From contig JAHIER010000057.1 of assembly GCA_018901555.1 (NCBI GenBank), positions 1-27,944 on the forward strand: a DNA stretch of 27,944 nucleotides, in the 5' to 3' direction. This document shows positions 606-27,944 of this stretch, piece after piece (the stretch's first letter is position 1; every line of letters starts with the position of its first letter). Source of the DNA: Patescibacteria group bacterium. Lineage in GTDB: Bacteria > Patescibacteriota > Minisyncoccia > UBA9983. The notes below the pieces were generated by a model, which searched no databases, was not told where the DNA came from, and worked only from the letters and a program-made list of their open reading frames with translations. The translations under genes and the position numbers were made by a program.

Positions 606-3017
606 ATGAAATCATATAATTTCAAAAAAATTGAAAAAAAATGGCAGGAAAAATGGAAGAAAGACAAGATTTATAATTCTAAAGATTTTGTAAGAGGAAA
701 AAAGAATTTTTATCATCTTGTAATGTTTCCGTATCCTTCAGGCGATCTGCACATTGGCCATTGGTATAATTTTGCTCCAGCTGATGTTTATGCGCGTACT
801 AAAATGATGCAGGGTTTTAATGTTATGTCGCCAATGGGCTTTGATGCTTTTGGGTTGCCAGCTGAAAACGCAGCTATTAAAAGAGGCATTCATCCTAAAG
901 ATTGGACTTATAAAAATATTGAGACCATGACTAGTCAACTAAAAAGCATGGGTAATATGTACGATTGGAACAGAAAAATTATTACTTCTGATCCTGAATA
1001 TTATAAATGGACCCAATGGATGTTTTTGCAATTGTATAAACACGAGCTGGCTTATAAGAAAAAAGCAGCAGCTAATTGGTGTCCCAAATGTCATACTGTT
1101 TTAGCTAATGAACAAGTCGTAAATGGAAAATGCGAGAGATGTGAAGCAGAAGTTGTTCAAAGAAATATAGAACAATGGCTTTTTAAAATTACTAAGTATG
1201 CAGATAAATTATTAAAAGATATAGATAAAGTTGATTGGCCAGAAAAAACAAAAATAATGCAAAAAAATTGGATTGGCAGATCAGAAGGCGCATTAATAAA
1301 ATTTAAAATTTCTAATTCTCAATTTTCAATTGATGTTTTTACCACAAGAGTTGATACAATTTTTGGTTGTACCTATGTAGTTTTAGCTCCAGAGCATGAA
1401 TTAATCCGCCAGCTGGCGGAAAAAATTGAAAATTATAACGAAGTTACTAAGTATATAGATGATGCTAAAAGAAAATCAGAATTACAGAGAGCGGAATTAG
1501 AAAAAGACAAAACCGGAGTTAAATTAGAAGGTGTTATGGCTGTAAATCCTTTTGATAATGAAGAAGTGCCAGTTTTTACAGCTGATTATGTTTTGGGTCA
1601 TTATGGCACAGGCGCGGTTATGGCTGTGCCGGCGCATGATGAAAGAGATTTTGAATTTGCTAGAAAATATGATCTTAAAATAAAACAATCAGTCAGTGGG
1701 GGCAAGCCTGAAGATAAATTATTTACAGAGGATGGGATTCTTGTTAATTCTGGCAAGTTCACAGGCTTATTATCAGAAAAAGCCAGAAAAGAAATGGGAA
1801 AATGGCTTGAAAAAAAGAAATTAGGCAAAAGAACTGTTAAATATAAATTACGCGATTGGCTTGTTTCCAGGCAAAGATATTGGGGATCTCCGATCCCTAT
1901 TATTTATTGTCCTAAATGTGGAATAGTAACAGTGCCTGAAAAAGATTTGCCAGTTTTATTGCCTAAGGTTAAAAATTATTTACCAACAGAAGAAGGTAAA
2001 TCACCACTGGCTCATTCAAAAAATTTTATTAATATTAAATGTCCCAAGTGTAATGGGCCGGCTGAAAGAGAAACAGATACAATGGATACTTTTGTTTGCT
2101 CTTCTTGGTATTATCTTGCATATGTTATGCGAGGAATTTCCAATTTCCAATTTCCAATTTCTAAATATCAGAAAGCCTTTAAGCGGTGGTTGCCGGTTAA
2201 TATGTATGTTGGCGGGGCAGAACATACTGTTCTTCATCTTCTTTATTCAAGATTTTTTACAAAAGCCTTAAAAGATTTTGGCTATGTAGATTTCAAAGAA
2301 CCTTTTATGTCTTTAAGACATCAAGGAATTATTTTAGGTCCTGATGGTCAAAAAATGTCAAAATCACGAGGCAATGTTATTGATCCTGATGAATTAGTGA
2401 AAAATTTTGGGGCGGATGTCGTACGGATGTATCTATGTTTTATGGCGGAATACTCGCAAGGAGGCCCGTGGAATCCAACCGGTATTATGGGCATAAAAAG
2501 ATTCCTAGAAAAAGTTTGGAAATTAGCGGACAAGGTTAAACCCAATGTTCCTCACAAAGGTTTAACCTTTGTGTTGCATAAAACTATTAAAAAAGTGACG
2601 GAAGACATTGAAAATTTTAAATTTAATACTGCCATCAGCTCTTTAATGATATTGGTTAATGAAATGGAAAAACAGCCAGCATTAGAAGTTAAAAATTGGA
2701 AATTGATAATTCATTTAATTGCTCCTTTTGCTCCGCATCTGGCGGAAGAATTATGGCAAAGTTTAGGACACAAAAAATCAATTTTTTTATCCACATGGCC
2801 CAAATATGATTCTAAGAAAATAAAGGAGGAAAAAGTTAAATTAGTTATACAAATAAATGGTAAAATGAGGGATATTTTTGAAGTATCAGTTGGTATAAAA
2901 GAAAAGGAAGCAAAGGTCTTGACATTGAAAAGGGAAAATGTTAAAAAGTGGATAGGCAATAAAGCCGTTAAAAAAACAATATTTATACCTAATAAATTAA
3001 TAAACATAGTTATATAA
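606..3017 (+). CDS. leuS: Leucine--tRNA ligase
   Basis: MFPYPSGDLHIGH (HIGH), GFDAFGLPAENAA, editing-domain GTGAVMAVPAHDERD, KMSKS, C-terminal VIQINGK. Confidence 0.99.
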   Translation: MKSYNFKKIEKKWQEKWKKDKIYNSKDFVRGKKNFYHLVMFPYPSGDLHIGHWYNFAPADVYARTKMMQGFNVMSPMGFDAFGLPAENAAIKRGIHPKDWTYKNIETMTSQLKSMGNMYDWNRKIITSDPEYYKWTQWMFLQLYKHELAYKKKAAANWCPKCHTVLANEQVVNGKCERCEAEVVQRNIEQWLFKITKYADKLLKDIDKVDWPEKTKIMQKNWIGRSEGALIKFKISNSQFSIDVFTTRVDTIFGCTYVVLAPEHELIRQLAEKIENYNEVTKYIDDAKRKSELQRAELEKDKTGVKLEGVMAVNPFDNEEVPVFTADYVLGHYGTGAVMAVPAHDERDFEFARKYDLKIKQSVSGGKPEDKLFTEDGILVNSGKFTGLLSEKARKEMGKWLEKKKLGKRTVKYKLRDWLVSRQRYWGSPIPIIYCPKCGIVTVPEKDLPVLLPKVKNYLPTEEGKSPLAHSKNFINIKCPKCNGPAERETDTMDTFVCSSWYYLAYVMRGISNFQFPISKYQKAFKRWLPVNMYVGGAEHTVLHLLYSRFFTKALKDFGYVDFKEPFMSLRHQGIILGPDGQKMSKSRGNVIDPDELVKNFGADVVRMYLCFMAEYSQGGPWNPTGIMGIKRFLEKVWKLADKVKPNVPHKGLTFVLHKTIKKVTEDIENFKFNTAISSLMILVNEMEKQPALEVKNWKLIIHLIAPFAPHLAEELWQSLGHKKSIFLSTWPKYDSKKIKEEKVKLVIQINGKMRDIFEVSVGIKEKEAKVLTLKRENVKKWIGNKAVKKTIFIPNKLINIVI
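1405..1420. repeat. Perfect 16-bp palindrome TCCGCCAGCTGGCGGA in leuS
   Basis: GC-rich self-complementary 16-mer encoding IRQLAE. Confidence 0.85.
2135..2162 (+). repeat. Heptamer tandem repeat (AATTTCC)x3 + AATTTCT in leuS
   Basis: Direct inspection; encodes ISNFQFPIS. Confidence 0.92.
2553..2573. repeat. In-frame palindrome CACAAAGGTT-T-AACCTTTGTG in leuS (HKGLTFV)
   Basis: Perfect 10-bp arms; 20 nt identical to 8597-8616. Confidence 0.95.
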
Positions 3018-3022
3018 TAAAA

Positions 3023-4051
3023 ATGCTGCAGCTTTCTTTTAACCCAAAATCAGTCACCAAAATTCTTACAATGCCATTAAATGACAGAACAAGGGATATT
3101 ATTTTCCAGCGTTTTGGTATTGGTCAGTCAGACGAAAGAAAAACCCTGGAAGCTATTGGCCAAACTTATGGGATTACTCGTGAAAGGATAAGGCAGTTGG
3201 AAAATTTTGCCTTGAAATCTATAAGACAGAATGATAATTTTGAACGCGCTACGGATGCTTTTGCAGAATTAAAAAATGCTATTTATCAAAAAGGAATTCT
3301 TTTGTCTGAAAAAGAAATTTTAGAAACCTTGGCAAAAGATATTTCCGCGCGCAATCATCTTCATTTTTTGCTTGTCTTGGGAGATGATTTTAAGAAATTG
3401 AAAGAAGATGAAGAATTTTATCATCGTTGGACTATTGATGAGGAAAGATCTGAAATAATTCATAATATTTTAAGAAAACTGTATAAAGATATAGAAAAAG
3501 AAGAATTGATGCCGGAAAAAGATATTGTTGCTTTAACTCAGGAATATGCAAAAGAAAATCTGAAAGAAAAAATATTAGAAGAAATGATTTTTTCTTGGTT
3601 AAGAATTTCAAAATTAATAGACCGCAATGCTTTGGGCGAATGGGGTCCAATTTCTTCAGAAAATATAAGACCAAGAGGTGTGCGAGATTTAGCTTTTCTT
3701 ATTTTTAGAAAAAGCGGTTCACCATTGCATTTTACCGAAGTGGCTAATTCAATTTCCAGCACTTTTTCTAAAGAAGCTCATCCAGCCACGGTTCATAATG
3801 AATTGATAAAAGATCCTAGATTCATTTTAGTTGGCAGAGGAATTTATGCTTTGAAAGACTGGGGATATAGTTCTGGCACGGTTCGCGACATAATCAAAAA
3901 TATTTTAAAATCATCTAAAAATTTAACTAAAGAAGAAATAATCAAAAAAGTTTTAAAGGAGCGTTATGTAAAAGAGAATACAATTCTTGTTAATTTGCAA
4001 AATAGGAAGTATTTTAAAAGAAACAAGGACGGCGCATATTCAATCGCATAA
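3023..4051 (+). CDS. Sigma-70 region-4-like HTH protein with C-terminal HARE-HTH/RNAP delta-like winged helices
   Basis: N-terminal RFGIGQSDERKTLEAIGQTYGITRERIRQLE is a sigma4 HTH pattern. C-terminal SPLHFTEVANSI...HNELIKDPRFILVGRGIYALKDWG resembles delta/HARE-HTH. No sigma region 2 is recognisable. Confidence 0.75.
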   Translation: MLQLSFNPKSVTKILTMPLNDRTRDIIFQRFGIGQSDERKTLEAIGQTYGITRERIRQLENFALKSIRQNDNFERATDAFAELKNAIYQKGILLSEKEILETLAKDISARNHLHFLLVLGDDFKKLKEDEEFYHRWTIDEERSEIIHNILRKLYKDIEKEELMPEKDIVALTQEYAKENLKEKILEEMIFSWLRISKLIDRNALGEWGPISSENIRPRGVRDLAFLIFRKSGSPLHFTEVANSISSTFSKEAHPATVHNELIKDPRFILVGRGIYALKDWGYSSGTVRDIIKNILKSSKNLTKEEIIKKVLKERYVKENTILVNLQNRKYFKRNKDGAYSIA

Positions 4052-4058
4052 TTTATTT

Positions 4059-5240
4059 ATGTCTTTACCTGTCCCTTTATTTATTCAGGATATCTTTTTT
4101 AAGATTTGGGAATTCATTTTAGCCAGTTATATATGGTGGCTACCTATTTTTTTAATTGCCATTTTTGGGAATCTTTGGGTTTATTATGCCAGATCAAAAT
4201 TTCTCTACGGACTTAGCTGGATACTTTTAGAAGTAAAATTACCTCGTGAAATAACAAAAACTCCGCGCGCCATGGAGGTATTTTTAAATTCTTTGCATAT
4301 AACCAAGGATGGCAATATGCTGGAAAAATATTGGCAAGGATTTTTAAGGGTTTGGTTTAGTTTGGAAATCGTGGGAATTAATGGTGAGGTTCATTTTTTT
4401 ATTTATACACAAAAATTTTTCCGAAATTTAATAGAAGCTCAATTATATGCTCAATATCCTGATGCTGAAATTGTTGAAGCAGAAGATTATACTAAAGCTA
4501 CATTCCCATTAGAAGATCTCGGCATTAAATGGGGTTGTTTTGGCACGGAATTCGTTCTTACTGCCGAAGATGCTTATCCGATTAGAACATATGTTGATTA
4601 TGGACTGCATGAGGCGCTTGTGAAAGAGGAGCAGAAGACAGATCCAATCACCGCTTTTGTGGAGCTCCTCGGATCTTTAAAACAAGGAGAACAAATTTGG
4701 TTTCAAATTTTAGTCAGGGCTACAAAAAAAGATTGGAAGGAAGAAGGAAAAAAACTTGTGGATAAATTAATGGAAAGAGATAAGGTATTAAAAGAAGGCG
4801 AGCATAACAGAAAATTGTCGTCCGGAGAAGTGGAAACAATAAAAGCAATTGAAAGAGATGTTTCTAAGCTTGGTTTTGATACTGGTATTCGAATACTTTA
4901 TCTGGCTAATAATGAAAGTTTTAATCCTATTAATATCCCATCAATGATAGGCACAATGAAACAGTACAATGCCGTTAACCTTAACGGCTTTGAGCCGGCC
5001 AACTCAACTTCTGTTGACTATTTTTTAAAAAAGAAAAGGGAAGCCAAAATGAAATTAAAAATGATTAATGCTTATCGTATGCGCTCATATTTTTATATGC
5101 CTTATCCCAAAATGCCTTTTGTTTTAAACACAGAAGAATTGGCAACGATTTATCATTTTCCTGGTCGAGTATCAGAAACCCCGACTTTTAGCAGAATTGA
5201 GGCAAAGAAGAGCGAACCACCAACAAATCTTCCTATTTAG
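4059..5240 (+). CDS. Hypothetical protein with N-terminal transmembrane segment
   Basis: Long ORF; the likely start is ATG 4059 (MSLPVPLF...), 7 nt after the upstream stop, not the track start 3987. Hydrophobic ILASYIWWLPIFLIAIFGNLWVYY; C-terminal PFVLNTEELATIYHFP. Confidence 0.8.
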   Translation: MSLPVPLFIQDIFFKIWEFILASYIWWLPIFLIAIFGNLWVYYARSKFLYGLSWILLEVKLPREITKTPRAMEVFLNSLHITKDGNMLEKYWQGFLRVWFSLEIVGINGEVHFFIYTQKFFRNLIEAQLYAQYPDAEIVEAEDYTKATFPLEDLGIKWGCFGTEFVLTAEDAYPIRTYVDYGLHEALVKEEQKTDPITAFVELLGSLKQGEQIWFQILVRATKKDWKEEGKKLVDKLMERDKVLKEGEHNRKLSSGEVETIKAIERDVSKLGFDTGIRILYLANNESFNPINIPSMIGTMKQYNAVNLNGFEPANSTSVDYFLKKKREAKMKLKMINAYRMRSYFYMPYPKMPFVLNTEELATIYHFPGRVSETPTFSRIEAKKSEPPTNLPI

Positions 5241-5242: not shown

Positions 5243-6199
5243 ATGAATTTTAAATATCGAAACCTTTTTGATTTTTCAATTATTTTAATTCTTTTCATCT
5301 TATTTTTTTATTGGATAAGTTTCCCAGCGCCTAAAGATTTTCCTGTAAACGGTTTTGTGCAGATTGAAGACGGATTATCAGTGCTTCAGGCAGGAGAAGC
5401 TTTAAAGAAAGGCAATGTTATTAGATCGTGTACAATTTTTGTCTTACTATCTAAAATAATGGGAATTGAGAAAAAGATTAAATCAGGAGAATATTTTTTT
5501 GAAAAACCGATATCCGTTGTAGAAGTAATTAAAAGATTAGGCGATGGCAATTACGGATTGCGTCAGAAAAAAATAACCATTACTGAAGGAGCAGCCTTAA
5601 AAGATATTGTTAATATTTTTAAAGATTTTAATAATTTTAAAGAAGAAGAATTTTATCTTATTACTAAAGACCCTTCATTAGAAGGTTATCTTTTCCCTGA
5701 TACCTATTTTGTTTTACCCAGTATTGATGCTACTGGAGTTGTTAAAATTATGAAAATAAATTTTGAAGAAAAAATAAATAGTTTAAAGGAAGAAATCGAA
5801 AAAAATAATCACAATCTTAATGAAATTATTACCATGGCTTCTTTAATTGAAAAGGAAGTATCTAATTTTGATGACAAGAAAATTGTTTCAGGCATTCTTT
5901 GGAAAAGAATAGGAAAGGGTATGCCCTTGCAGGTAGACGCTATTTTTGTTTATTTATTAGGAAAAACAAGCGCTGAACTTACTTTGGATGATTTAAAAAT
6001 TGATTCGCAATATAATACTTATACTAATAAAGGTTTACCGCCGACTCCTATTTGTAATCCTGGTTTGGAAAGCATAGAAGCAACGCTTCGGCCGATTGAT
6101 TCTTCTTATTTTTACTATTTGTCTGACAAAGAGGGGAATATTCATTTTGCCAAAAATTTTGAAGAACATAAAGTTAATAAAAACAAATATTTGCGTTAA
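5243..6199 (+). CDS. mltG: Endolytic transglycosylase MltG (YceG family)
   Basis: N-terminal TM, ITITEG, LEGYLFPDTYF, MASLIEKE (catalytic Glu), LQVDA, SQYNTYTNKGLPPTPICNPG. Confidence 0.96.
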   Translation: MNFKYRNLFDFSIILILFILFFYWISFPAPKDFPVNGFVQIEDGLSVLQAGEALKKGNVIRSCTIFVLLSKIMGIEKKIKSGEYFFEKPISVVEVIKRLGDGNYGLRQKKITITEGAALKDIVNIFKDFNNFKEEEFYLITKDPSLEGYLFPDTYFVLPSIDATGVVKIMKINFEEKINSLKEEIEKNNHNLNEIITMASLIEKEVSNFDDKKIVSGILWKRIGKGMPLQVDAIFVYLLGKTSAELTLDDLKIDSQYNTYTNKGLPPTPICNPGLESIEATLRPIDSSYFYYLSDKEGNIHFAKNFEEHKVNKNKYLR

Positions 6200-6289
6200 A
6201 AAACAGTTTTTTGGGTAATCCACAGTTTCAGGTCTGCCCATTTAAATTAATGGTAAAATAAATATCAAAGGTCGGGTCTTTAATATTGA

Positions 6290-6511
6290 ATGAATTTTAA
6301 TAAAATGAATAAATTAAACGCGCTAGATTTAATCTCTTTAATTCTTATGATTGTTGGCGGTTTGAATTGGGGATTGGTTGGTGTAATAAATTTAAACATT
6401 GTTGATGCTATTTTCGGAGTAGGATCTCTTCTTTCATCAATTGTTTATATTTTAGTTGGTTTGGCTTCTGTGTATATATTAGTAATGCTGGGAAAATTAA
6501 AAAGAGCATAA
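6290..6511 (+). CDS. DUF378 family small membrane protein
   Basis: LILMIVGGLNWGLVG...IVYILVGLASVY matches the DUF378 pattern; ATG 6305 is an alternative start. Confidence 0.9.
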   Translation: MNFNKMNKLNALDLISLILMIVGGLNWGLVGVINLNIVDAIFGVGSLLSSIVYILVGLASVYILVMLGKLKRA

Positions 6512-6537
6512 TCTGAAAAATTTTTCAAAAATGAAAT

Positions 6538-6572
6538 AGTCCGGCGGTTAATCCGTCGGACTTTTTCTTTTT
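6538..6572. terminator. Intrinsic terminator between convergent DUF378 and signal peptidase genes
   Basis: AGTCCGGCGG-TTAAT-CCGTCGGACT stem-loop followed by TTTTCTTTTT. Confidence 0.88.
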
Positions 6573-7039
6573 TACAATTTTTTATTGGCCACAATTAAGC
6601 CAGATAAAATTGATGTCATCGTTATTAAAAAAAAGATAAGAGGTTTTTCTAAAAAATTTATAGAAAATAAATATCCCAACAACGGTATATTCATTAAAAA
6701 TAACCATTCAGCTTGGTATGTCGCAATTATTTGATCATCATTCTCATTATTATCTCCCTTAGTAATAAGATAATAACCATCTTTTCCTAGTTTTTCTTTG
6801 ACACGATGAATAAGAGAATCCGGTCCAGTATTAATCGCGACAATATTTCCAACTTCTATTTCTTTGGGTGTTGTTTTTTTTAAAATAGCCAAATCCCCAT
6901 TTTTTATCCCTGGCTCCATACTATTGCCAGAAACAGCTGAAATATTAAATTCAAATTTTTGATTCAGATTAAAAAACCAAACATAGAAAAAGAAAATTGA
7001 AAGAATTAAGAAAAAAACAGAATAACTATAACGTTTCAT
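6572..7039 (-). CDS. Signal peptidase I, S26 family, Ser/His (SipW/archaeal-ER) type
   Basis: N-terminal TM, VSGNSMEP (catalytic Ser), LIHRV (His), LITKGDNN..DD, C-terminal TM. SD-like AAGGGGGTGA at 7041-7050 on the - strand. Confidence 0.9.
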   Translation of the reverse strand: MKRYSYSVFFLILSIFFFYVWFFNLNQKFEFNISAVSGNSMEPGIKNGDLAILKKTTPKEIEVGNIVAINTGPDSLIHRVKEKLGKDGYYLITKGDNNENDDQIIATYQAEWLFLMNIPLLGYLFSINFLEKPLIFFLITMTSILSGLIVANKKL

Positions 7040-7115
7040 CTCACCCCCTTTTTAATGTTCTAGTTTCTTTATAGCAGATTGAATAATTTTTTCAAGGTGA
7101 TAAACTTTTATAATC

Positions 7116-7493
7116 ATGGATCAAGGGAAATTTGAACAAATGGTAACAGAAGGAATCAATGCTATTCCGGAAAAATTTTTAGAAAAATTAAGCAATGTGG
7201 CTATTGTTATAGAAGATGAGCCTAGCAGCGAGCAAATCAAAAAGATAAACTTATGTCCACAATGGGCTCTTTTCGGTCTTTATGAAGGTATCCCGCAATC
7301 TTCTAGGGGTGTTTATTATAGTCATCCGCCGGACAAAATTACCATTTTTAAAAAATCAATTGAAGAACAAGCCAATAATGATAATGATGTAAAAGAAATA
7401 GTAAAAAATACTGTTTGGCATGAAATCGCTCATCATTTTGGCATGAATGAAGAAAGGGTAGAAAGGGCTGAAAAAAGAAGACGGATAAAATAG
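7116..7493 (+). CDS. Zincin-like metallopeptidase family protein (DUF1025/Zincin_1)
   Basis: LFGLYEGIP, PDKITIFKKSI, TVWHEIAHHFG (HExxH). Confidence 0.92.
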   Translation: MDQGKFEQMVTEGINAIPEKFLEKLSNVAIVIEDEPSSEQIKKINLCPQWALFGLYEGIPQSSRGVYYSHPPDKITIFKKSIEEQANNDNDVKEIVKNTVWHEIAHHFGMNEERVERAEKRRRIK

Positions 7494-7546
7494 GATAGAT
7501 GATTTTCCGTTTTGTTATTCATAAATAATATTATATAATATTATTT

Positions 7547-8188
7547 ATGAATACTATAAATAAAAATCAAATTCACTGGATTATTTTTGCTTTATCAATT
7601 TTAATTTTTTCTTTAATATTTATGCGCGCTTTTTCAAATTTTGAGGACGAACAAAAGAAATTAATGGCTTCTTTAGAAATAAAAAAAGTTATTTCTTCAG
7701 GCAATGTTATTGCTGAGATGGAAACTAATTATGGCCAAATAAAACTGGAGCTTTTTAGCAATGATGCGCCTAAAACAATAGAAAATTTTGTTAATCTTGC
7801 AAAATCGGGTTTTTATAAAAATACAAAATTTCATCGTGTGATAAAAGATTTTATGATTCAAGGCGGTGATCCTAATAGCAAGAATGATGATTGGTCAGAT
7901 GATGGACGCGGTGGGCCAGGTTATGTTTTTGATGATGAAATTAATTCTTATAAAGTTGTTCGCGGAGTTATTGCTATGGCTAATGCCGGACCCAATACTA
8001 ATGGCAGTCAGTTTTTTATAGTTACAACTGGCACTGCTCCTTGGCTAGATGGTCTCCATACAGTTTTTGGCAAGGTTATAGAAGGCATGGATGTGGTAGA
8101 TAAAATTGAAAATATTAAAACAGATAAGGCAAAAGAAGATCATCCCATAGAAGATGTTATTGTTAAAACGATAGATATTATTGAATAG
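7547..8188 (+). CDS. Cyclophilin-type peptidyl-prolyl cis-trans isomerase with N-terminal membrane anchor
   Basis: APKTIENFVNLA, FHRVIKDFMIQGGDP, AMANAGPNTNGSQFFI, WLDGLHTVFGKV. Confidence 0.97.
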   Translation: MNTINKNQIHWIIFALSILIFSLIFMRAFSNFEDEQKKLMASLEIKKVISSGNVIAEMETNYGQIKLELFSNDAPKTIENFVNLAKSGFYKNTKFHRVIKDFMIQGGDPNSKNDDWSDDGRGGPGYVFDDEINSYKVVRGVIAMANAGPNTNGSQFFIVTTGTAPWLDGLHTVFGKVIEGMDVVDKIENIKTDKAKEDHPIEDVIVKTIDIIE

Positions 8189-8230
8189 ATCTCTTTTTAT
8201 TTCTAATTTTTTTCATAAATTTTAAAATCT

Positions 8231-9295
8231 ATGAAAAATAAAAAAGTTTTGATAGCTATGAGTGGCGGAGTGGATAGTTCTGTTGCTGCTTATTTATTAA
8301 AAAAAGAAGGTTATAATTTAACCGGAGTATTTTTTGATTTGGGGCAGATTAATTGTCAAGCATCTTTAAAAAGCGCTGAAAAAACGGCTAAAAAAATTGG
8401 CATTCCTTTAAAAAAAATAAATCTGCGCAACCAGTTTAAAAAAATGGTTATAAATAAGTTTTTAAGTGAATTTAAAAAAGGCAATACGCCTAATCCTTGC
8501 GTGGTTTGCAATAAAAAAATTAAATTTGAAAATCTTTTGAGCTTGGCGAATAAAATGAAGATTAATTATATTGCGACCGGACACTACACAAAGCCCCACA
8601 AAGGTTTAACCTTTGTAAAATTACTACTGGCAAAAGATAAAACGAAAGATCAGAGTTATTTTTTATATAATCTTAATCAGAAAATTTTAAGCAGGACAAT
8701 TTTCCCATTAGGAAATTTAATCAAAGAACAGGTTAAAAAAATGGCTGATAATTGGAAACTGCCTTATTTAAAAAAAGAAAGTCAGGATATTTGTTTTTTA
8801 AAAGGAGATCATAATAATTATTTGAGAAAAAATCTAAAAAAAATAAAGTTGGGCAAAATTGTTGATAGTCATAGTAAAATTTATGGAACTCATTGCGGTT
8901 TGCCGTTTTATACTATTGGCCAGAGAATAGATTTGGGAGGATTACCAATTCCGTATTATATTGTAGCTAAAAATAGAAAAAGAAATTTATTAATAATTGC
9001 TAGTCTGGTTGAAGAAAAAAAATACTGGAAAAAAGAAGTAAAAATAAAAAATGTAAATTGGATATCTGGTAAAGCGCCGAACTTGGACATTAAATGTCCA
9101 AGTGGACATTTAATGTCCAAGTTGTTAAAAGCCCGTATCCGTTACCGCCAGCCACTTGAAAATTGTAAATTAAAAATTGAAAATTCTAAAAACTATTTTG
9201 TAACTTTTAATAAACCTCAAAGAGCTGTAACCTCGGGGCAATCACTAGTCATTTATAAGGGTCAAGAATTAATCGGTGGCGGAATAATTATATGA
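8231..9295 (+). CDS. mnmA: tRNA-specific 2-thiouridylase MnmA
   Basis: AMSGGVDSSV, TPNPCVVCNKKIKF, IATGHY, KDQSYFL, ESQDICF, YTIGQR, QRAVTSGQ. Confidence 0.97.
   Translation: MKNKKVLIAMSGGVDSSVAAYLLKKEGYNLTGVFFDLGQINCQASLKSAEKTAKKIGIPLKKINLRNQFKKMVINKFLSEFKKGNTPNPCVVCNKKIKFENLLSLANKMKINYIATGHYTKPHKGLTFVKLLLAKDKTKDQSYFLYNLNQKILSRTIFPLGNLIKEQVKKMADNWKLPYLKKESQDICFLKGDHNNYLRKNLKKIKLGKIVDSHSKIYGTHCGLPFYTIGQRIDLGGLPIPYYIVAKNRKRNLLIIASLVEEKKYWKKEVKIKNVNWISGKAPNLDIKCPSGHLMSKLLKARIRYRQPLENCKLKIENSKNYFVTFNKPQRAVTSGQSLVIYKGQELIGGGIII
8597..8616. repeat. In-frame palindrome CACAAAGGTTTAACCTTTGT in mnmA (HKGLTFV)
   Basis: Identical to leuS 2553-2572 and read in the same frame. Confidence 0.95.
9081..9122. 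repeat. 42-nt double palindrome in mnmA (GGACAT-N3-ATGTCC x2)
   Basis: ACTTGGACATTAAATGTCCA-AG-TGGACATTTAATGTCCAAGT: 20-nt perfect arms, each half itself palindromic. Confidence 0.95.
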
Positions 9296-10182
9296 AAAAA
9301 GTAAGGGCTTTGGTTTTATTTTCTGGCGGGTTGGATTCTATTTTAGCTGTTAAAGTTTTAGAGGAACAGGGGATTGATGTGACTGCGGTGAATTTTGCCA
9401 GCTATTTTTTTGATAGTGAACAGGCTAAAAAATCAGCCGAAGAAAATAATATAAAATTAAAAATCATAAAAAATAAATTTCCTCAATATCATTGGCAGAT
9501 TGTAAAAAACCCAAAATACGGTTATGGACGCGCTATGAATCCATGCGCTGACTGCCATTTATTAATGGTTAAAAAGGCAGGAGAAATTATGAAAAAAGGC
9601 AAATATGATTTTTTAGCTACCGGAGAAGTTTTGGGGCAAAGAGGATTTTCTCAAAACAAAAATGCCTTGAAAAATATCGAAGAACATTCTGGCATAAAAG
9701 GAAAACTGTCAAGGCCATTAAGCGCTGGATTATTAAAACCAACAGAAGTTGAAAATTCAGGTTTAGTTAATAGAGAAAAACTTTTTAATTTTAGCGGTAA
9801 GGGCAGGAAGAGGCAGATTGAATTGGCAAAAAAATTGAAAATAAAATATTATCCCTCACCAGCTGGAGGTTGTCTTTTAACTGACAAAGAATTTGGCCAT
9901 CGTTTAAAATTAATGATGGAAAATTTTGGAGCAGATGATATTGTTGTTTCAGATTTTGTTTTATTGAAATTCAGCCGTCATTTTTGGTTTGATAAAAATT
10001 TAATTATTGTTGGTAAAAATAAAGACGAAAATAACAGATTAAAAAAATTAAAACAAAAAAACGATATTTTATTAAGACCAGATTTTCCCGGTCCGAGCGT
10101 TTTAATAAGGGGAAGAAAAATTAATCAGGGAATAATTGAAGAAGCTCAAAAATTAATTAAAAAATATTCTAAAAAGATGTGA
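9292..10182 (+). CDS. ThiI/MnmA-like PP-loop (adenine nucleotide alpha hydrolase) putative tRNA thiolase, without THUMP domain
   Basis: LFSGGLDS, MNPCADCH, ATGEVLGQR, PAGGCLLTD, C-terminal IIVGKNKDEN (DUF814/NFACT-R-like); ATGA overlap with mnmA. Confidence 0.82.
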   Translation: MKKVRALVLFSGGLDSILAVKVLEEQGIDVTAVNFASYFFDSEQAKKSAEENNIKLKIIKNKFPQYHWQIVKNPKYGYGRAMNPCADCHLLMVKKAGEIMKKGKYDFLATGEVLGQRGFSQNKNALKNIEEHSGIKGKLSRPLSAGLLKPTEVENSGLVNREKLFNFSGKGRKRQIELAKKLKIKYYPSPAGGCLLTDKEFGHRLKLMMENFGADDIVVSDFVLLKFSRHFWFDKNLIIVGKNKDENNRLKKLKQKNDILLRPDFPGPSVLIRGRKINQGIIEEAQKLIKKYSKKM

Positions 10183-10201: not shown

Positions 10202-11983
10202 ATGATATCAAGGGAAATCAGAGATAAATTTTTAGAGTTTTTTACAGAAAAAGGGCATACTGTGATTTCTTCAGCTTCTTTGATTCCAAGCGAAACTGAT
10301 CCAACCGTGCTTTTTACAACGGCTGGCATGCATCCTCTAGTGCCATATCTTTTGGGAGAAAAACATCCGGGCGGAAACAAAATTGCTAATGTTCAAAAAT
10401 GTATCAGAACAGTTGATATTGATGAAGTAGGCGACATTAGTCATCTTACTTTTTTTGAAATGCTGGGAAATTGGTCATTTGGATCTTATTTTAAAAAAGA
10501 GGCTATTGAATGGAGTTGGAAATTTTTAACTGCTCCTAATTGGCTGGGACTTGATCCTGATAAAATTGCAGTTTCTGTTTTTCAAGGAGATGATAATGCT
10601 CCTTTTGATGAGGAATCTTACGAAATTTGGGAAAAAACCGGACTTTCTAAAAAAAGAATTGCTAAACTTCCTAAAGAAAATAATTGGTGGGATTCTCCTG
10701 GCGCAACAGGGCCTTGCGGGCCTGATACGGAAATGTTTTATTGGATGGGTAATTCAGAAAAAGCTCCGGAAACATTTGATCCTAATGATAATAACTGGCT
10801 GGAAATCTGGAATGATGTTTTTATGCAATATAATAAAATAGCAGAAGGACGCTACGAACCTTTAAAACAAAAAAATGTTGATACTGGAATGGGGTTGGAA
10901 AGAATCGCCATGGTCATGCAGGATGTTTCAACTGTTTATGAGACCGATTTATTTTTGCCGATCATGAGAAAAATTGATGAGCTTGGACATTTGATGTCCA
11001 ACGGGACATCGGATGTCCTTAGGTCAAAAAGAATTATTGCTGATCATATTAAGGCTGCGGTTTTTATAATTTCTGATGAAGTAGAGCCGTCAAATACCGG
11101 CCGTGGTTATGTGTTAAGAAGATTAATAAGAAGGGCAATAAGACATGGAAAATTATTAGGTATTGAAAAATTTTTTATAAATAAAATAGCCGAATCTGTA
11201 ATAGATATTTATAAAGAGCAATATCCTGAACTATTGAATAATGAATTAGAAATTATGAATGAATTAGAAAAAGAAGATGAAAAATTTAGAAAAACTTTAG
11301 ACCAAGGCATAAAAGAATTCAATAAATTAAAAGAAATTACTGGTAAAGATGCTTTTAACTTGTATCAAACTTATGGTTTTCCTTTTGAAATGACAAAAGA
11401 GATAGCAACAGAAAAAGGAATAGAAATAAATGAAACAGAATTTAAAGAAGAGTTTAATCTCCATCAGGAACTTTCTAAAACCGCATCTGTCGGCATGTTT
11501 AAGGGCGGATTGGCTGATTCTGGCGAGCAATCAAAAAAATATCATACAGCAACACATCTGCTTTTGTCAGCCCTGCGTCATATTTTAGGAAATCATGTTG
11601 AGCAAAAGGGAAGTAATATTGATTCCGAGCGCATGCGTTTTGATTTTTCTCATTCGCAAAAAATGACTGAAGAAGAAATTAAAAAAGTTGAAGATATAGT
11701 TAATGAAAAAATTAAAGAAAATTTGCCAGTATCCTGTGAAGAAATGAATTTAGAGGAAGCAAAACAAAAAGGCGCTTTAGGATCTTTTGAGCAAAAATAT
11801 CTTGCCTGCCGGCAGGCAGATGGTGATAAAGTAAAAGTGTACTCAATAGGGTCTTTTAGTAAGGAAATTTGCGGAGGACCTCATGTTGAAAATACTGGCG
11901 AGATTGGTGATTTTAAAATTATAAAAGAAGAAGCCAGTTCAGCTGGCGTGCGCAGGATTAAGGCAATTGTGGAAAACTCTTAA
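10202..11983 (+). CDS. alaS: Alanine--tRNA ligase (short, 593 aa; lacks C-Ala domain)
   Basis: TVLFTTAGMHPL, HLTFFEMLGNWSFGSYFK, DTGMGLER, GRGYVLRRLIRRA, editing HTATHLL and EICGGPHV; ends just after GVRRIKA. Confidence 0.98.
   Translation: MISREIRDKFLEFFTEKGHTVISSASLIPSETDPTVLFTTAGMHPLVPYLLGEKHPGGNKIANVQKCIRTVDIDEVGDISHLTFFEMLGNWSFGSYFKKEAIEWSWKFLTAPNWLGLDPDKIAVSVFQGDDNAPFDEESYEIWEKTGLSKKRIAKLPKENNWWDSPGATGPCGPDTEMFYWMGNSEKAPETFDPNDNNWLEIWNDVFMQYNKIAEGRYEPLKQKNVDTGMGLERIAMVMQDVSTVYETDLFLPIMRKIDELGHLMSNGTSDVLRSKRIIADHIKAAVFIISDEVEPSNTGRGYVLRRLIRRAIRHGKLLGIEKFFINKIAESVIDIYKEQYPELLNNELEIMNELEKEDEKFRKTLDQGIKEFNKLKEITGKDAFNLYQTYGFPFEMTKEIATEKGIEINETEFKEEFNLHQELSKTASVGMFKGGLADSGEQSKKYHTATHLLLSALRHILGNHVEQKGSNIDSERMRFDFSHSQKMTEEEIKKVEDIVNEKIKENLPVSCEEMNLEEAKQKGALGSFEQKYLACRQADGDKVKVYSIGSFSKEICGGPHVENTGEIGDFKIIKEEASSAGVRRIKAIVENS
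10983..11018. repeat. Double palindrome in alaS (GGACAT-N3-ATGTCC x2)
   Basis: TTGGACAT-TTG-ATGTCCAA (10983-11001) and GGACATC-G-GATGTCC (11004-11018). Confidence 0.92.
11803..11818. repeat. Perfect 16-bp palindrome TGCCTGCCGGCAGGCA in alaS
   Basis: GC-rich self-complementary 16-mer within an apparent 7-aa insertion (LACRQAD). Confidence 0.9.
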
Positions 11984-12003: not shown

Positions 12004-13179
12004 ATGGCTCTTTTAGGTGGAAGAAAAAAAGAAGAAATAATTGCTGTCATAGATTTAGGTAGCGCTTCGGTTGGCGGAATGTTGATTAAAAAAACTGCTA
12101 AATCAGGACAAGAAATAATTACCAGCACAAGGGTGCCCATAAATTTTTTAATGGATGTTGATTTCCAGGCATTTTGGCGTTGCGCTGTTAATTCTTTAAA
12201 TAAAGTAATGTCCCAGCTTCTTAAAGATTATCCCAAGGGACCTGATAAGGTACTTTGCGCTTTTTCTCATCTCTGGGTTATTTCTCAAACACGGGTTATA
12301 AAAGTAAAAAAGAATGAAAAATTTAAAATAGATAAAACCTTCCTTGATAAAATTATAGAAAATGAAATAAAAACTTTTAAAATACAGGGCCAAACTCAGA
12401 TAGCAAGTTTAAAAGAAAATGTTGAACTAGTGGAATATAAAATTATGCGCACTTCTCTAAATGGTTATAATGTGGAAAATCCATTTGATAAATGGACTAA
12501 AAGATTTAGCGCCTATGTGCATATGAGTTTGATTGACAATAGTATAAAAAAAACTTTACAAGAATCTTTTCTTAAAAATTTTGGCGATGTAACGATTGAG
12601 TTTAGAACAATGCCTTTTATTATTTTTAGTATCCTTAAAAATTTAGACAAGATTGACGAGGGTTTTTTATTTTTGGACATCGGCGGAGAAACCAGTGATA
12701 TTTCTTTGGTTCGCAGAAATGTATTAGAAGAAACTATTTCTTTCCCGCGCGGGAAAAACTTTTTAATAAGAAAAGTAGCCAGTGCTTTTAAAACTTTTGT
12801 TGATGACGCAATTTCCATATTAAATAGTTATCAAAACAATCAAATTTCTCCGGCAATTTTAGAAAAGTTAATTCCTATTATTGAATTTGCTAAAAAAGAA
12901 TGGAATGATTATTTAGAAAAAACCATGCAAGAACTTTCTCGGGAATTACCGTTGCCTAAAAAAATTCTAGTGGTTAGCAACACGAGTGTTTTTGAAGAAT
13001 TTGTTCAGGGCGTAAAAAATGAATCGCTTGCCAAATTTACTATTTTGTCTAAACCTTTTGAATTGGAAAGAATTTCTGCTGAAGCCTTGAAGGATCACTT
13101 TATTTTTAAAAGAAATATTAATGTAGATAATGATGTTTTTTTAATGCTAGAATCAATTTTTGCTGATAAATTTTTATAA
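12004..13179 (+). CDS. FtsA/PilM-like actin-fold protein
   Basis: Phosphate-1-like IAVIDLGSASVGG and phosphate-2-like LFLDIGGETSDISLV...FPRGKNFLIRKVA; divergent from canonical FtsA. Confidence 0.72.
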   Translation: MALLGGRKKEEIIAVIDLGSASVGGMLIKKTAKSGQEIITSTRVPINFLMDVDFQAFWRCAVNSLNKVMSQLLKDYPKGPDKVLCAFSHLWVISQTRVIKVKKNEKFKIDKTFLDKIIENEIKTFKIQGQTQIASLKENVELVEYKIMRTSLNGYNVENPFDKWTKRFSAYVHMSLIDNSIKKTLQESFLKNFGDVTIEFRTMPFIIFSILKNLDKIDEGFLFLDIGGETSDISLVRRNVLEETISFPRGKNFLIRKVASAFKTFVDDAISILNSYQNNQISPAILEKLIPIIEFAKKEWNDYLEKTMQELSRELPLPKKILVVSNTSVFEEFVQGVKNESLAKFTILSKPFELERISAEALKDHFIFKRNINVDNDVFLMLESIFADKFL

Positions 13180-13185: not shown

Positions 13186-14337
13186 ATGGATAGCAATTGG
13201 AAAAAAGAAATTCAAGACAGAACTGAAAAAGTTCCCGTTTCTGGGGGCCGGTCTAATAAAACCGGAAAAATTTCTTTTGATGATATTGTTTTTATGCCTG
13301 CTCAGTTGTCAAAAAAACCGGTTGATTATTTTAAAGATAAGATAAGCTCAAAAACGATTATCGGGGAAAATAGCAAAAAACCAATTGAGCTAGAAACTCC
13401 GATTTTAATCGCTGGCATGAGTTTTGGCGCTTTAAGCAAGGAAGCAAAAATTATTTTAGCTAAGGCTTCTACTTTAGCAGGCACGATGGCCAATACAGGC
13501 GAGGGGGGAATGTTAGAAGAAGAAAGAAAATTTGCAAAAAAACTTATCATTCAATATTCAACTGGACGTTTTGGAATTACTGAAGAAATATTAAAAAAAG
13601 CTGATGCAATTGAAATAAAAATAGGACAAGGAGCTAAGGGCGGTCAAGGAGGTCTTTTGCCGGCCAGCAAAGTGACAGAAGAAATTGCCAAAGTTAGAAA
13701 GATTGAATTTGGCAAAGATGTTCACTCGCCAGCTTATCATCCTGATATTAAAAATCCGGAAGACCTTAAAGAAAAAGTGCAATGGATAAGAAAAATTACT
13801 GGTGGTGTTCCAGTAATTATAAAATTTGCCGCTGGCAATATTAAAAAAGATATTGAAATCGCGGTTAAGGCTGATCCGGATATTATAGCTATTGACGGTA
13901 TTGAGGGCGGTACAGCTGCGGCGCCAAAAGTGATGTTGGACGATGTAGGGATCCCTTCTGTTATCGCTTTGATTGAAGCAAGAAAGGCGCTGGATAAAAT
14001 TGGCGCCAGGCAAGAATTATGGATAGCTGGAGGTTTTGGGAAAGGTTCTGATATCGCTAAAGCGCTTGCCTTGGGGGCTGATGCTGTTTTTTTAGGGACT
14101 TCTTTGTTAATAGCAATGGGATGTATTTATTGCCAGCTTTGTTATCAAGGGAAATGTCCTAAGGGTATTGCCACTCAGGATCCAGAATTAAGAAAAAATT
14201 TAGATATTGAAGAAGCATCTAAAAAGGTGGCTAATTTTATTAAAAATTGTACAGAAGAAATAAAAATGATTACCGGGGCTTGTGGCGAAGATGATGCGCA
14301 CAAACTTAATAAAGATCATCTTTATTTTTATAAATAA
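13186..14337 (+). CDS. FMN-binding glutamate synthase family protein (stand-alone FMN/3Fe-4S module)
   Basis: AGMSFGALS, NTGEGG, IEIKIGQGAKGGQGGLLP, DGIEGGTAAAP, GCIYCQLCYQGKCPKGIATQDP. Confidence 0.93.
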   Translation: MDSNWKKEIQDRTEKVPVSGGRSNKTGKISFDDIVFMPAQLSKKPVDYFKDKISSKTIIGENSKKPIELETPILIAGMSFGALSKEAKIILAKASTLAGTMANTGEGGMLEEERKFAKKLIIQYSTGRFGITEEILKKADAIEIKIGQGAKGGQGGLLPASKVTEEIAKVRKIEFGKDVHSPAYHPDIKNPEDLKEKVQWIRKITGGVPVIIKFAAGNIKKDIEIAVKADPDIIAIDGIEGGTAAAPKVMLDDVGIPSVIALIEARKALDKIGARQELWIAGGFGKGSDIAKALALGADAVFLGTSLLIAMGCIYCQLCYQGKCPKGIATQDPELRKNLDIEEASKKVANFIKNCTEEIKMITGACGEDDAHKLNKDHLYFYK

Positions 14338-15639: not shown

Positions 15640-15677
15640 AAGTGAGGTTTGTTAATTTAAGATTTTAGAAATCTTTC

Positions 15678-15699
15678 ACGATCGTAAAATTTATCTAAA
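15678..15699. repeat. 22-bp direct repeat copy 1 (ACGATCGTAAAATTTATCTAAA) with palindromic core
   Basis: Exact match to 16319-16340; ends 1 nt before the ATG at 15701. Confidence 0.95.
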
Positions 15700-15700: not shown

Positions 15701-16261
15701 ATGAAGAAAGAGAAAAAAATAAAAATCGCAAAAATAATTTTGAAAACAGTGGCTGCAGCAGACATTATAAGTATGATTATTTTGGCGCCAAATGCTTTGC
15801 AATGTTTGGATATGTTTTATGACAGAAGAAAAAGAAAATACAATCCAAAGTACTACATTCAAAATACAATAGGAAGATTAAAAAATCAGGGTTTAATAAA
15901 ATTTGAAACAAAAAATGGTAAAAAATTTGTTCGACTTACTGAAAAGGGTGAAAAAGAATTATTAAAATATCAACTGCAAGAATTAGTTGTTAAAAAACCT
16001 AAAAAATGGGATGAAAAATGGCGTGTTATTATTTTTGACATAAAGGAAAAAAGAAGAAAAACAAGAGATGAATTACGCAGAGAATTAAATAATTTAGGAT
16101 TTATTAAACTTCAAAACAGTGTTTGGGTATACCCCTATGAATGTGAAGAAATTATTATAATGTTAAAGGCGTATTATTTAATAGGAAAAGATGTTTTATA
16201 TATGACAGTGGAAAAAATAGAAAATGACAGGTGGCTTAAAGAAGAATTTAAACTTAAATAA
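15701..16261 (+). CDS. PaaX-like protein: winged HTH plus Cas2-like ferredoxin-fold domain
   Basis: IQNTIGRLKNQGLIKFETKNGKKFVRLTEKG (wHTH); KWDEKWRVIIFDIKE...RDELRRELNNLGFIKLQNSVWVYP (PaaX central/Cas2-like). Confidence 0.85.
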   Translation: MKKEKKIKIAKIILKTVAAADIISMIILAPNALQCLDMFYDRRKRKYNPKYYIQNTIGRLKNQGLIKFETKNGKKFVRLTEKGEKELLKYQLQELVVKKPKKWDEKWRVIIFDIKEKRRKTRDELRRELNNLGFIKLQNSVWVYPYECEEIIIMLKAYYLIGKDVLYMTVEKIENDRWLKEEFKLK

Positions 16262-16318: not shown

Positions 16319-16340
16319 ACGATCGTAAAATTTATCTAAA
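16319..16340. repeat. 22-bp direct repeat copy 2 (ACGATCGTAAAATTTATCTAAA)
   Basis: Exact match to 15678-15699; here TACGATCGTA (16318-16327) is a perfect 10-bp palindrome. Confidence 0.95.
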
Positions 16341-20011: not shown

Positions 20012-20452
20012 ATGACAACCGCCAAGAAAACAAAGGAGACAAAAGAAAAGAAGCCGGCAAAAAATACTTATTTTGAAGCCATAGGCAGAAGAAAAACTTC
20101 AATAGCCAGAGTGAGGCTTTTTAATAAAGGAGAATCTGGCATTATTGTTAATAATAAAGATTTTAAAAAATATTTTCCTACAGCAGAATTGCACAATGTT
20201 ATTGAAGATCCGCTCAAGAAAATGAAACTTGCTGAAAGTTTTAAAATCACAGTGAAAACTTCTGGCGGGGGAGTTAGCTCTCAGGCAGAAGCAGTTCGGT
20301 TAGGAATTTCTAGAGCCTTGGTTAAATTTAATGCAGAATTCAGAAAAAGATTAAAGAAAGCGGGATTTCTTAAAAGAGATCCTCGCACAAAAGAGCGTCG
20401 TAAGTTCGGTTTAAAGAAAGCAAGAAAAGCTCCGCAATGGAGTAAGCGATAA
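20012..20452 (+). CDS. rpsI: 30S ribosomal protein S9
   Basis: GRRKTSIARVRL, GGGVSSQAEAVRLGISRAL, RDPRTKERRKFGLKKARKAPQWSKR. Confidence 0.98.
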   Translation: MTTAKKTKETKEKKPAKNTYFEAIGRRKTSIARVRLFNKGESGIIVNNKDFKKYFPTAELHNVIEDPLKKMKLAESFKITVKTSGGGVSSQAEAVRLGISRALVKFNAEFRKRLKKAGFLKRDPRTKERRKFGLKKARKAPQWSKR

Positions 20453-20459
20453 AAGATTA

Positions 20460-20544
20460 AAGCCTCGGTTTTCCCGGGGCTTTTTACTTGGGGGTTTCAC
20501 CCCCAAGTCCTTGTATTTGTTGACGTGGCATTGGGAAAATGATA
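20460..20544 (+). repeat. Composite element copy 1: terminator hairpin + U-tract + 23-nt palindrome ACTTGGGGGT-TTC-ACCCCCAAGT + promoter-like tail
   Basis: AAGCCTCGG-TTTTC-CCGGGGCTT then TTT (20460-20485) terminates rpsI; palindrome 20486-20508; CTTGTATTT 20510-20518; GGAAAATGATA 20534-20544. Homologous to 21072-21147. Confidence 0.92.
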
Positions 20545-20588
20545 GGAATTAAATAGATTTGAAACTTAAAAAGGGGGAAATTATAACT

Positions 20589-20975
20589 ATGAGTATACTT
20601 GATAGGCCATGCAGTTCACCTAAAGAAGCATTTTTAGTAGCTCAAGGGCATTGTATTACTACAAAAAGAGATGTTTGTTATGCTTATGATGGAGTCGGAT
20701 GTAGTTCTTGTCCAAAATATAAAGAAGGATTAAAAAGAAGAAAAGAAAGAATAAAAAAAGAAAAAAAACAAACTCTGAAAGAAGTTGTAATAGACATAGA
20801 CCCAATTTTTAAAAGCAAGGCGATTATGAGGATAAGAAAAATTAATTCGTATTATTACTTTGAAATTGGAGAAGTCTATAAAGATCAGCCTGATTTATTT
20901 TGCAAAAAAAGATCAATTGTTTTAACATATGAAGAAAAAAAGATTGCAGTAAAATTGCTGGCTGAGCGGGGGTAA
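20589..20975 (+). CDS. Hypothetical 128-aa Cys-rich, basic protein
   Basis: ORF with AAGGGGG SD about 10 nt upstream of ATG 20589; five Cys and one His in the N-terminal 31 aa (C..HC..C..CSSC); no family recognised. Confidence 0.65.
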   Translation: MSILDRPCSSPKEAFLVAQGHCITTKRDVCYAYDGVGCSSCPKYKEGLKRRKERIKKEKKQTLKEVVIDIDPIFKSKAIMRIRKINSYYYFEIGEVYKDQPDLFCKKRSIVLTYEEKKIAVKLLAERG

Positions 20976-21062
20976 TGCATGGTTGCATTATCAAGGCACC
21001 ACCTTGATAGGATCAGGCAAATCACCGTTTGAATTCGGGTTTGATTCCCAACTCCCGCTCCA
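20966..21062 (+). ncRNA. Non-canonical tRNA-like cloverleaf, Gly-type acceptor stem, putative ACC anticodon, long variable arm, encoded CCA
   Basis: Acceptor GCGGGGG/CTCCCGC + T73 + CCA; D arm ATGC(A)-TGGT-(T)GCAT; anticodon arm ATCAAG-GCACCAC-CTTGAT; 26-nt variable region; T arm TCGGG-TTTGATT-CCCAA; intrinsic terminator 10 nt downstream. Confidence 0.6.
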
Positions 21063-21071
21063 AATAAATTT

Positions 21072-21147
21072 AAGCCTCGGCAAAACCGAGGCTTTTTACT
21101 TGGGGGTGAAACCCCCAAGTTCTTGTATTTTTGGCTGGAAAATGATA
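21072..21147 (+). repeat. Composite element copy 2: terminator + 23-nt palindrome ACTTGGGGGT-GAA-ACCCCCAAGT + grpE promoter
   Basis: AAGCCTCGG-CAAAA-CCGAGGCTT then TTT (21072-21097); palindrome 21098-21120; CTTGTATTT 21122-21130; GGAAAATGATA 21137-21147. Confidence 0.92.
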
Positions 21148-21158: not shown

Positions 21159-21746
21159 ATGACTGAAGAAAAAAATACTAATAATAACGGCAATGATAAT
21201 GAAAATCTTGAAGATATTGTTGTTGAGGAAGAGGGAATTCCGGCTGATTTGCAATTGAAAAAACTTCGGGAAAAGCTGAAAAAATGCATGGCGGAAAAAG
21301 AAGAATATTTGGCCGGCTGGCAGAGAGCTAAGGCAGATTTTATTAATGCTAGAAACGAAGAAAAAGAGAATCGAACAGAATTGTTGAAATTTGCCAATGA
21401 AGAAATTATTGAGGATATTCTGCCGGTTTTAGACAGTTTTGATCTTGCTTTTAATAATGAAAATTGGCAAAAACTTGACAAAATATGGCAAGAAGGTATA
21501 AAATTAATATATAACAAATTTATAGATACTCTAAAGAAACACGGCATAGAAAAAATAGAAACTATAAATAAGAAATTTAATCCTGAAGAACATGAATCAT
21601 TAGGGGAGATTGAAATTGAAGACTCGCCTCGCGGCGAAGCGGGTAAAAATAAAGAGGGAGTTGTTTTGGAAGAAATTCGGAAAGGATATAAAATTCATAA
21701 TAAATTATTAAGACCTGCTCAAGTCAGAGTAGGAAAAACAAAATAA
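21159..21746 (+). CDS. grpE: Nucleotide exchange factor GrpE
   Basis: WQRAKADFINAR, ILPVLDSF, FNPEEHESL, KGYKIHNKLLRPAQVRV; start taken at ATG 21159. Confidence 0.97.
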   Translation: MTEEKNTNNNGNDNENLEDIVVEEEGIPADLQLKKLREKLKKCMAEKEEYLAGWQRAKADFINARNEEKENRTELLKFANEEIIEDILPVLDSFDLAFNNENWQKLDKIWQEGIKLIYNKFIDTLKKHGIEKIETINKKFNPEEHESLGEIEIEDSPRGEAGKNKEGVVLEEIRKGYKIHNKLLRPAQVRVGKTK

Positions 21747-26326: not shown

Positions 26327-26330
26327 AAAG

Positions 26331-26434: not shown

Positions 26435-26480
26435 ACAATACCTTTTTTCTCTTGAAAAGTCAAGGGAAATTTGATAGAAT
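26435..26480. promoter_or_regulatory. Back-to-back overlapping divergent promoters
   Basis: + strand: TTGAAA 26452-26457, 17 nt, TG-n-TAGAAT 26475-26480 (rsmI). - strand: TTGACT (26463-26458), 17 nt, TATTGT (26440-26435). Confidence 0.6.
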
Positions 26481-26489
26481 TAATTCATT

Positions 26490-27170: not shown

Positions 27171-27178
27171 AAAAGGAG

Positions 27179-27868: not shown

Positions 27869-27898
27869 AGCCCGGCCTAGATTCAGCCGGGTTTTTTT
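27869..27898 (+). terminator. Intrinsic terminator
   Basis: AGCCCGGC-CTAGATTCA-GCCGGGTT followed by a T-run. Confidence 0.85.
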
Positions 27899-27910
27899 AT
27901 TATCAATAAA

Positions 27911-27944
27911 TGTCAACGTGGCACGTTGACGTGGCAGGTTGACA
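27911..27944. repeat. Palindromic / 13-bp tandem motif at window edge
   Basis: GTCAACGTG-G-CACGTTGAC perfect inverted repeat (27912-27930); tandem ACGTGGCACGTTG / ACGTGGCAGGTTG; ends in TTGACA. Confidence 0.75.

Follow-up and report, generated by a model that had tools for sequence, protein, structure and literature searches.

Why do short palindromes lie in frame inside essential genes, and which protein, if any, spreads them? The question is raised by a contig of a Patescibacteria group bacterium (JAHIER010000057.1, assembly GCA_018901555.1), which was analysed over its whole length of 27.9 kb (27,944 nucleotides) and is called the window in the following; within the assembly, here G000, it is contig C82. 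The original prediction, made from the letters of this stretch, had listed palindromic elements in leuS, mnmA, alaS, grpE and several intergenic regions, and had proposed a PaaX/Cas2-like protein encoded in the window as their binder or mobiliser. Every listed element was found at its position. We propose that the palindromes are elements of the REP (repetitive extragenic palindrome) type and that most of them belong to a system of REPs and REP-associated tyrosine transposases (RAYTs) that has multiplied in G000, with 16 diverged Y1/HUH genes and palindrome families of their own. We assign a probability of about 0.8 to this reading.

Assembly G000, a small genome of groundwater origin, consists of 84 contigs (525 kb, 34% G+C) and is 85% complete. 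Among named genomes, its LeuRS is matched best by metagenome-assembled genomes of Patescibacteria (Paceibacterota/Parcubacteria type). A detector for perfect hairpins (stem at least 8, loop at most 4, GC content at least 40%) found 138 of them in G000, compared to 3–16 in Markov shuffles and 5–9 in triplet shuffles. With one mismatch permitted, 188 loci were found, vs 38–48 in the shuffles. The genome-wide control by shuffling thus speaks for a strong enrichment (138 vs approximately 8). The hairpins cluster in at least 12 families, the cores of which are mostly 21 nt long and built in a 10+1+10 or 9+3+9 fashion. Identical 19–23-mers are present at up to 16 unrelated loci, and the dispersed families that are linked to RAYT genes have 7–16 copies each, with singlets as well as inverted doublets. 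Two thirds of the perfect-hairpin loci (78 of 117) are located inside open frames and spread over 65 of 616 frames (≈10%); all 17 inverted doublets of at least 33 nt are intragenic. Stop codons are mildly depleted, with 4.8 of the six frames open compared to 4.2 in arm-shuffled palindromes (P 0.02). As a consequence of their dispersal in frame, hairpins encode the same peptides in unrelated proteins, such as LGDSVSK, VGNLVSD, VKHSVFD and LDIKCPS. All elements of the window except the one in grpE have further copies in G000. The view that very short palindromes of multiple families are dispersed over the genome, lie in frame in essential genes and add peptides of seven residues is therefore supported. 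No hairpin with a GC content of at least 30% was detected between 12758 and 20363, and the ribosomal-protein block is therefore nearly free of hairpins, as had been noticed before.

According to the original prediction no RAYT is present here. This is correct for the window and does not hold for the genome, in which 16 loci match the Pfam domain Y1_Tnp (PF01797), 14 of them above the cut-off. The sole NCBIfam match of the encoded proteins is REP_Tyr_transpos (REP-associated tyrosine transposase), below the equivalog cut-off, and we refer to the genes as RAYT-like. Their products are diverged (22–81% pairwise identity); several of them, encoded by genes between identical palindromes, have the N-terminus EYYHIxNRG and the motif PNHFHLL in common. 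Two histidines of the HUH motif, H90 and H92, and the tyrosine Y150 within YIHLNP are invariant over 14 paralogues. An AlphaFold model of one paralogue, calculated with an alignment of these 14, had a pLDDT of 83, and its top match in the PDB by Foldseek was 4er8, the E. coli TnpA-REP protein in complex with a REP hairpin (E 4e-7, TM 0.64), with the TnpA proteins of IS608 and ISDra2 as the next structural matches. A TnpB gene (PF07282, PF01385) was not found in the 85%-complete G000. The comparison within the family comprised 18 genomes, namely G000 and 17 others, including a congener (G001) and a syntenic relative (G003). Y1_Tnp matches are present in 15 of the 17 other genomes with only 1–9 each, so that G000 has the most.

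The RAYT-like genes and the palindromes are linked by their arrangement. All 15 complete RAYT-like genes have a palindrome of their own not more than ≈40 nt away from an end, and the loop is mostly inverted between the two sides. With the same detector for all genes, GC-rich hairpins flank 11 of the 16 RAYT-like genes compared to 68 of the 404 other genes; hairpins on both sides were found for 5 of the 16 vs 6 of the 404. Eight RAYT-like genes additionally have their own palindrome in frame, in a loop before the HUH motif (e.g. C81:277–918, C12:4192–4857, C83:4138–4914 and C76:13300–14064); in the gene on C75 this loop harbours a copy of the C81 family, not of its own. The ACTTGGACAT.. family, which is represented in the window in mnmA (9081) and alaS (10983), brackets the RAYT-like gene G000:C75:1426–2073. 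The window itself terminates in overlapping copies of the GTCAACGTGGCA.. family (27910–27944; contig-end family, GTCAACGTG…), and this composite is found on both sides of the RAYT-like gene G000:C24:1423–2070 on the short contig C24. Six pairs of RAYT-like proteins with at least 55% identity, a threshold that was picked after the data had been seen, are accompanied by similar palindromes (mean score 14.7 vs 5.3, permutation p 5e-5). Over all pairs, identity and palindrome similarity were weakly related in a Mantel test (rho 0.13, p 0.11), and the signal resides in the close pairs only. Alignments of the oriented flanks revealed symmetric feet (a “double foot”) such as ACTTGG..CCAAGT, TGTC..GACA and ACCGAC..GTCGGT. 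One RAYT-linked family was checked across the 18 genomes and is abundant only in G000; in one relative, this family lies directly beside a Y1 match.

How did the palindromes come into the proteins? Those in alaS, grpE and mnmA are in-frame insertions. In alaS, a 21-nt insertion at 11801–11821 encodes the seven residues LACRQAD and holds a 16-nt palindrome (11803–11818) of which G000 has three exact copies and two with one mismatch. In grpE, an insertion of the same length (21624–21644; SPRGEAG) forms an imperfect 10+1+10 palindrome; the listed element itself is an imperfect palindrome at 21625–21641. Neither peptide is present in any of the 15 relatives compared, the congener included, and alignment of the DNA to the congener shows gaps of exactly 21 nt at both sites with a junction ambiguity of at most 2 nt. 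Mapping on orthologues, which had been suggested along with the original prediction, thus identified both peptides as clean 21-nt insertions without counterpart in relatives. A search of metagenome contigs for the empty alaS site gave no match to the gapped pattern. A second element in alaS, a degenerate doublet in a variable loop (10983–11018, LGHLMSNGTSDVL), belongs to the same family as the 44-nt perfect inverted doublet at 9080–9123 in mnmA. The latter is REPIN-like, is a member of the ACTTGGACAT.. family and encodes the peptide LDIKCPSGHLMSK. It is missing in most homologues, is present with variant cores in some (LETGFPSGNPVSK, LDTRCPKGHRVS), and corresponds to a net gain of ≈10 residues, not 14; presence and absence were read here against other species only, the closest MnmA homologue in the protein collection having at most 64% identity. 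The other mnmA element is a 20-mer in a hypervariable loop (8597–8616) with a net gain of ≈3–5 residues, and homologues have different peptides of the palindrome type there.

The 20-mer is identical to, and in the same frame as, an element of leuS, a 21-nt palindrome at 2553–2573 with the core CAAAGGTTTAACCTTTG that encodes HKGLTFV in a hypervariable linker of LeuRS and has 6–7 copies in G000. An alignment of 18 LeuRS proteins showed no net gain at this site; the linker of G000 is not longer than that of the shortest homologues. Six of the 18 genomes have a long palindrome in the LeuRS linker, each of a different family, and G003 has one of its own palindrome families at both the leuS-linker and the mnmA site. 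This indicates that the sites are reused and that the occupant family turns over. The first leuS element, a loop-less 16-nt GC palindrome in frame (1405–1420; peptide IRQLAE; three copies in G000), replaces sequence at unchanged length in the same alignment. The statement that the insertions are mostly 21 or 42 nt long therefore applies to the clean 21-nt insertions in alaS and grpE, and neither to the two mnmA elements nor to leuS 2553 and leuS 1405. At the leuS 1405 site, relatives also have an AT-richer peptide, ..LKSQISNLK... The same peptide recurs in several relatives in the unrelated proteins LeuRS, MnmA and AlaS (L002, L015, L165, P0013, P0036), which suggests that more palindrome families exist below the GC filter.

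We assume that each RAYT recognises its own hairpin on single-stranded DNA and cuts and rejoins the strand beside it, in analogy to E. coli TnpA-REP and to the TnpA proteins of IS200 and IS608. By this reaction the hairpins would be copied or renewed. In G000 they occur as REP singlets of ≈21 nt and as inverted, REPIN-like doublets of ≈42 nt. Because ≈95% of G000 is open frame, most of the surviving copies would be those that keep the frame, for which a unit of seven codons with few stops is suited; they would reside in surface loops that tolerate changes in length and would be translated there.

Several findings weigh against the assignment to a REP/RAYT system. Neither a GTAG nor a CGTC guide tetranucleotide was found, and the oriented flank alignments contain no one-sided tetranucleotide. 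No RAYT was detected in the incomplete assembly beside the window families 1405, 11803, 2553/8597 and 20486/21098, and the grpE element has no second copy in G000. A simple insertion fails to explain leuS 1405 with its constant length and the mnmA doublet with its ≈10 residues. In 27 genomes, the excess of palindromes shows only a weak correlation with RAYT density (rho 0.40), and that with PaaX density is no stronger or weaker (rho 0.39), as determined from densities per Mb in 20–100 kb sampled per relative; related genomes are not independent, the two gene densities are themselves intercorrelated (0.65), and the comparison does not discriminate between them. Finally, the two loop-less 16-mers are conserved verbatim across genera, that of leuS 1405 in 10 and that of alaS 11803 in 6 of the 18 family genomes, and reach up to 16 copies; the RAYT-linked family that was checked is, by contrast, specific for one genome. 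Neither a Y1_Tnp nor a PaaX_M match was found beside them at the coordinates compared. These two 16-mers may lie outside the RAYT system. In one relative (G005:C14:18738–18777) they are situated 8 nt apart from each other. A pair of leuS-type 16-mers at a distance of 1.3 kb in G007 was considered as a gene bracket and rejected, since each copy is inside a different open reading frame (ORF).

Some palindromes, above all the two 16-mers, could accordingly be bound as double strands by a conserved dimeric protein, or be some other motif under selection, instead of REPs. The absence of a loop, the spread over different genera, the replacement of sequence at constant length in leuS and the lack of a neighbouring transposase or PaaX_M match would fit to this explanation. 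We nevertheless consider it improbable: in alaS the 16-mer came with a clean insertion of 21 nt, a module of the same size as the grpE insertion and as the ≈21-nt RAYT-linked cores, the copies occupy non-orthologous positions from genome to genome in the manner of mobile elements, and a cognate gene may be unassembled because assemblies break at repeats. A variant to which we give somewhat more credit, tentative as it is, regards fixed loops of essential proteins as landing pads in which successive REP families replace each other in place, sometimes without change in length; the 16-mers, which several genera share and which lack a partner of the RAYT or PaaX type, would then represent a further palindrome system. 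In-place replacement of this kind would imply that REPs are targeted to these sites by replacement or homing and do not insert at random, and that the repeat unit is tuned to seven codons. Still another possibility is that template switching or hairpin-directed repair creates the palindromes on the spot, or that they are assembly artefacts, without any dedicated enzyme. Replacement without change in length at some sites and contigs that terminate in such repeats could be taken in its favour. Identical 19–23-mers at up to 16 unrelated loci, reading frames that remain open and the recovery of the same peptides in homologues from independent assemblies (NCBI, JGI, ENA and Logan) make it the least credible of the explanations considered.

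The candidate named by the original prediction was the PaaX/Cas2-like winged-helix protein encoded at 15701–16261 on the plus strand (Pfam PaaX_M, E 1e-21), a domain that it shares with the PaaX repressor (TIGR02277). Some points speak for this protein, or a paralogue of it, as binder or mobiliser of the dispersed palindromes: a repeat whose core is palindromic stands on both sides of the gene, there are six PaaX_M loci in G000, and PaaX density correlates with the palindrome excess as weakly as RAYT density does. However, hairpins of the dispersed families flank none of the six PaaX_M loci when the detector of the RAYT flanks is applied, and the repeats that do flank them are private. In the window these are direct repeats at 15678 and 16319: one copy lies upstream of the gene (15667–15699, plus strand) as an imperfect palindrome around ACGATCGT, the other one downstream of it and upstream of infA (16319–16340, plus strand), and G000 contains only these two copies and a weak third one. 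Two of the six loci are probably the halves of one gene split over two contig ends, which leaves 5–6 paralogues. Most of the paralogues, which besides the window copy lie on C17, C65, C5 and C60/C19, have a private imperfect palindrome of 33–44 nt with a CGATCG-type core up- and downstream; for the copy on C5 the upstream palindrome only was found, and a further copy of one of the private repeats stands alone at C51:5663–5706. The private repeats amount to 2–3 genome copies each, are AT-richer and are unrelated to the in-frame families, whereas RAYT-like genes explain the bracketing family by family. In the otherwise syntenic contig G003:C10, the PaaX-like gene and its repeats are missing and infA follows directly. 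We regard the PaaX/Cas2-like gene as a self-bracketed unit of its own outside the dispersed system, and a role as binder or mobiliser of the palindromes is very unlikely.

Rickettsia palindromic elements are ≈100–150 bp long, and no cognate transposase is known for them. They are located in frame in genes that stay functional and add peptide segments to the products (PMC3733652). The elements of G000 resemble them by their in-frame position in conserved genes (alaS, grpE, mnmA) and differ from them by units of only 16–44 nt and by the presence of cognate RAYT-like genes. The better precedent is provided by REPs and REPINs with their RAYTs (TnpA-REP), the “REPtrons” that are well described for E. 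coli, Pseudomonas and Stenotrophomonas (PMC3116915, PMC3733652, PMC6006769). Di Nocera et al. reported intragenic REPs, with tRNA synthetases among the hosts (PMC3733652), and Quentin et al. described in-frame REPs within the tnpAREP genes of subclass 2.4 (PMC6006769). G000 shares with REPtrons the HUH/Y1 fold with HUH motif and catalytic tyrosine, genes that are bracketed by their own, mostly inverted hairpins, the dispersal of one family as singlets and inverted doublets, and several diverged RAYTs per genome with a family for each and no TnpB found. The similarity of the modelled protein to the 4er8 complex is only suggestive of binding and cleavage of single-stranded REPs. Differences are the symmetric units with ≈21-nt cores that lack a GTAG/CGTC guide, the intragenic position of two thirds of the elements compared to mainly extragenic REPs, and the number of 16 RAYT-like genes in 0.52 Mb of a streamlined Patescibacteria genome. 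The motifs NH[FY]H, LFQG and YIHLNP of the G000 proteins resemble those of subclass 2.1 of Quentin et al. (NH[YF]H, FQ and Y[IV]HLNP), which is recorded without REPs (PMC6006769). In IS200/IS605 elements, too, a Y1 HUH transposase recognises subterminal hairpins, and the TnpA proteins of IS608 and ISDra2 are structural matches; in contrast to these elements, the gene copies of G000 are diverged and not identical, lack a detectable TnpB, and the repeats have spread without the gene. We found no paper that pairs RAYTs with Patescibacteria, the candidate phyla radiation (CPR) or Parcubacteria.

Streamlined, ultra-small genomes are expected to shed selfish DNA, yet the 0.5-Mb genome studied here keeps 16 genes for transposase-like proteins specific for hairpins, and approximately one open frame in ten has a repeat-encoded peptide, among them the frames of aminoacyl-tRNA synthetases and of a chaperone cofactor. 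Provided that the enzymes are active, nature would have here a means of writing short peptides into loops of essential proteins, which would also cause variation in protein length and breaks in the assemblies of Patescibacteria genomes. Annotators are given an explanation for odd peptides such as LGDSVSK, VGNLVSD and LDIKCPS that recur in unrelated proteins.

Intergenic palindromes are found on both sides of a segment of ≈600 nt (20452–21123). At 20459–20508, a terminator-like hairpin (20459–20483) precedes a palindrome of 23 nt that belongs to the ACTTGGGGGT.. family (20486–20508); at 21072–21120, a second terminator-like hairpin (21072–21094) is followed by another 23-nt palindrome (21098–21120). 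The two palindromes are mutual reverse complements. The family has seven copies in G000, and its foot ACTTGG..CCAAGT is common to two RAYT-linked families, the enzymes of which share 71% identity. The whole segment between the inverted pairs of hairpin and palindrome is missing from the syntenic contig of G003. It holds an ORF (20559–20975) without Pfam match and a tRNA-like stretch (20966–21062) that was called neither by ARAGORN nor by Rfam, both of which detected no RNA gene in the window at all. Further GC-rich hairpins that had not been listed before are present at 4967–4992, 6538–6562 and 12739–12758; the second of these has an intergenic position and is possibly a terminator.

Almost all genes of the window are on the plus strand. 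They comprise leuS, mnmA, a ThiI-like gene, alaS, the PaaX_M/Cas2-like gene, infA, rpmJ, the ribosomal-protein/rpoA block, grpE, dnaK and dnaJ. The same stretch is also present in the groundwater runs X1–X3 and in the metatranscriptome X9. Three other segments of the window that have the size of genes (6197–8230, 9292–10182 and 13186–14337) are missing in the otherwise collinear contig of G003; one of them contains the ThiI-like gene and another one a gene with a Glu_synthase domain.

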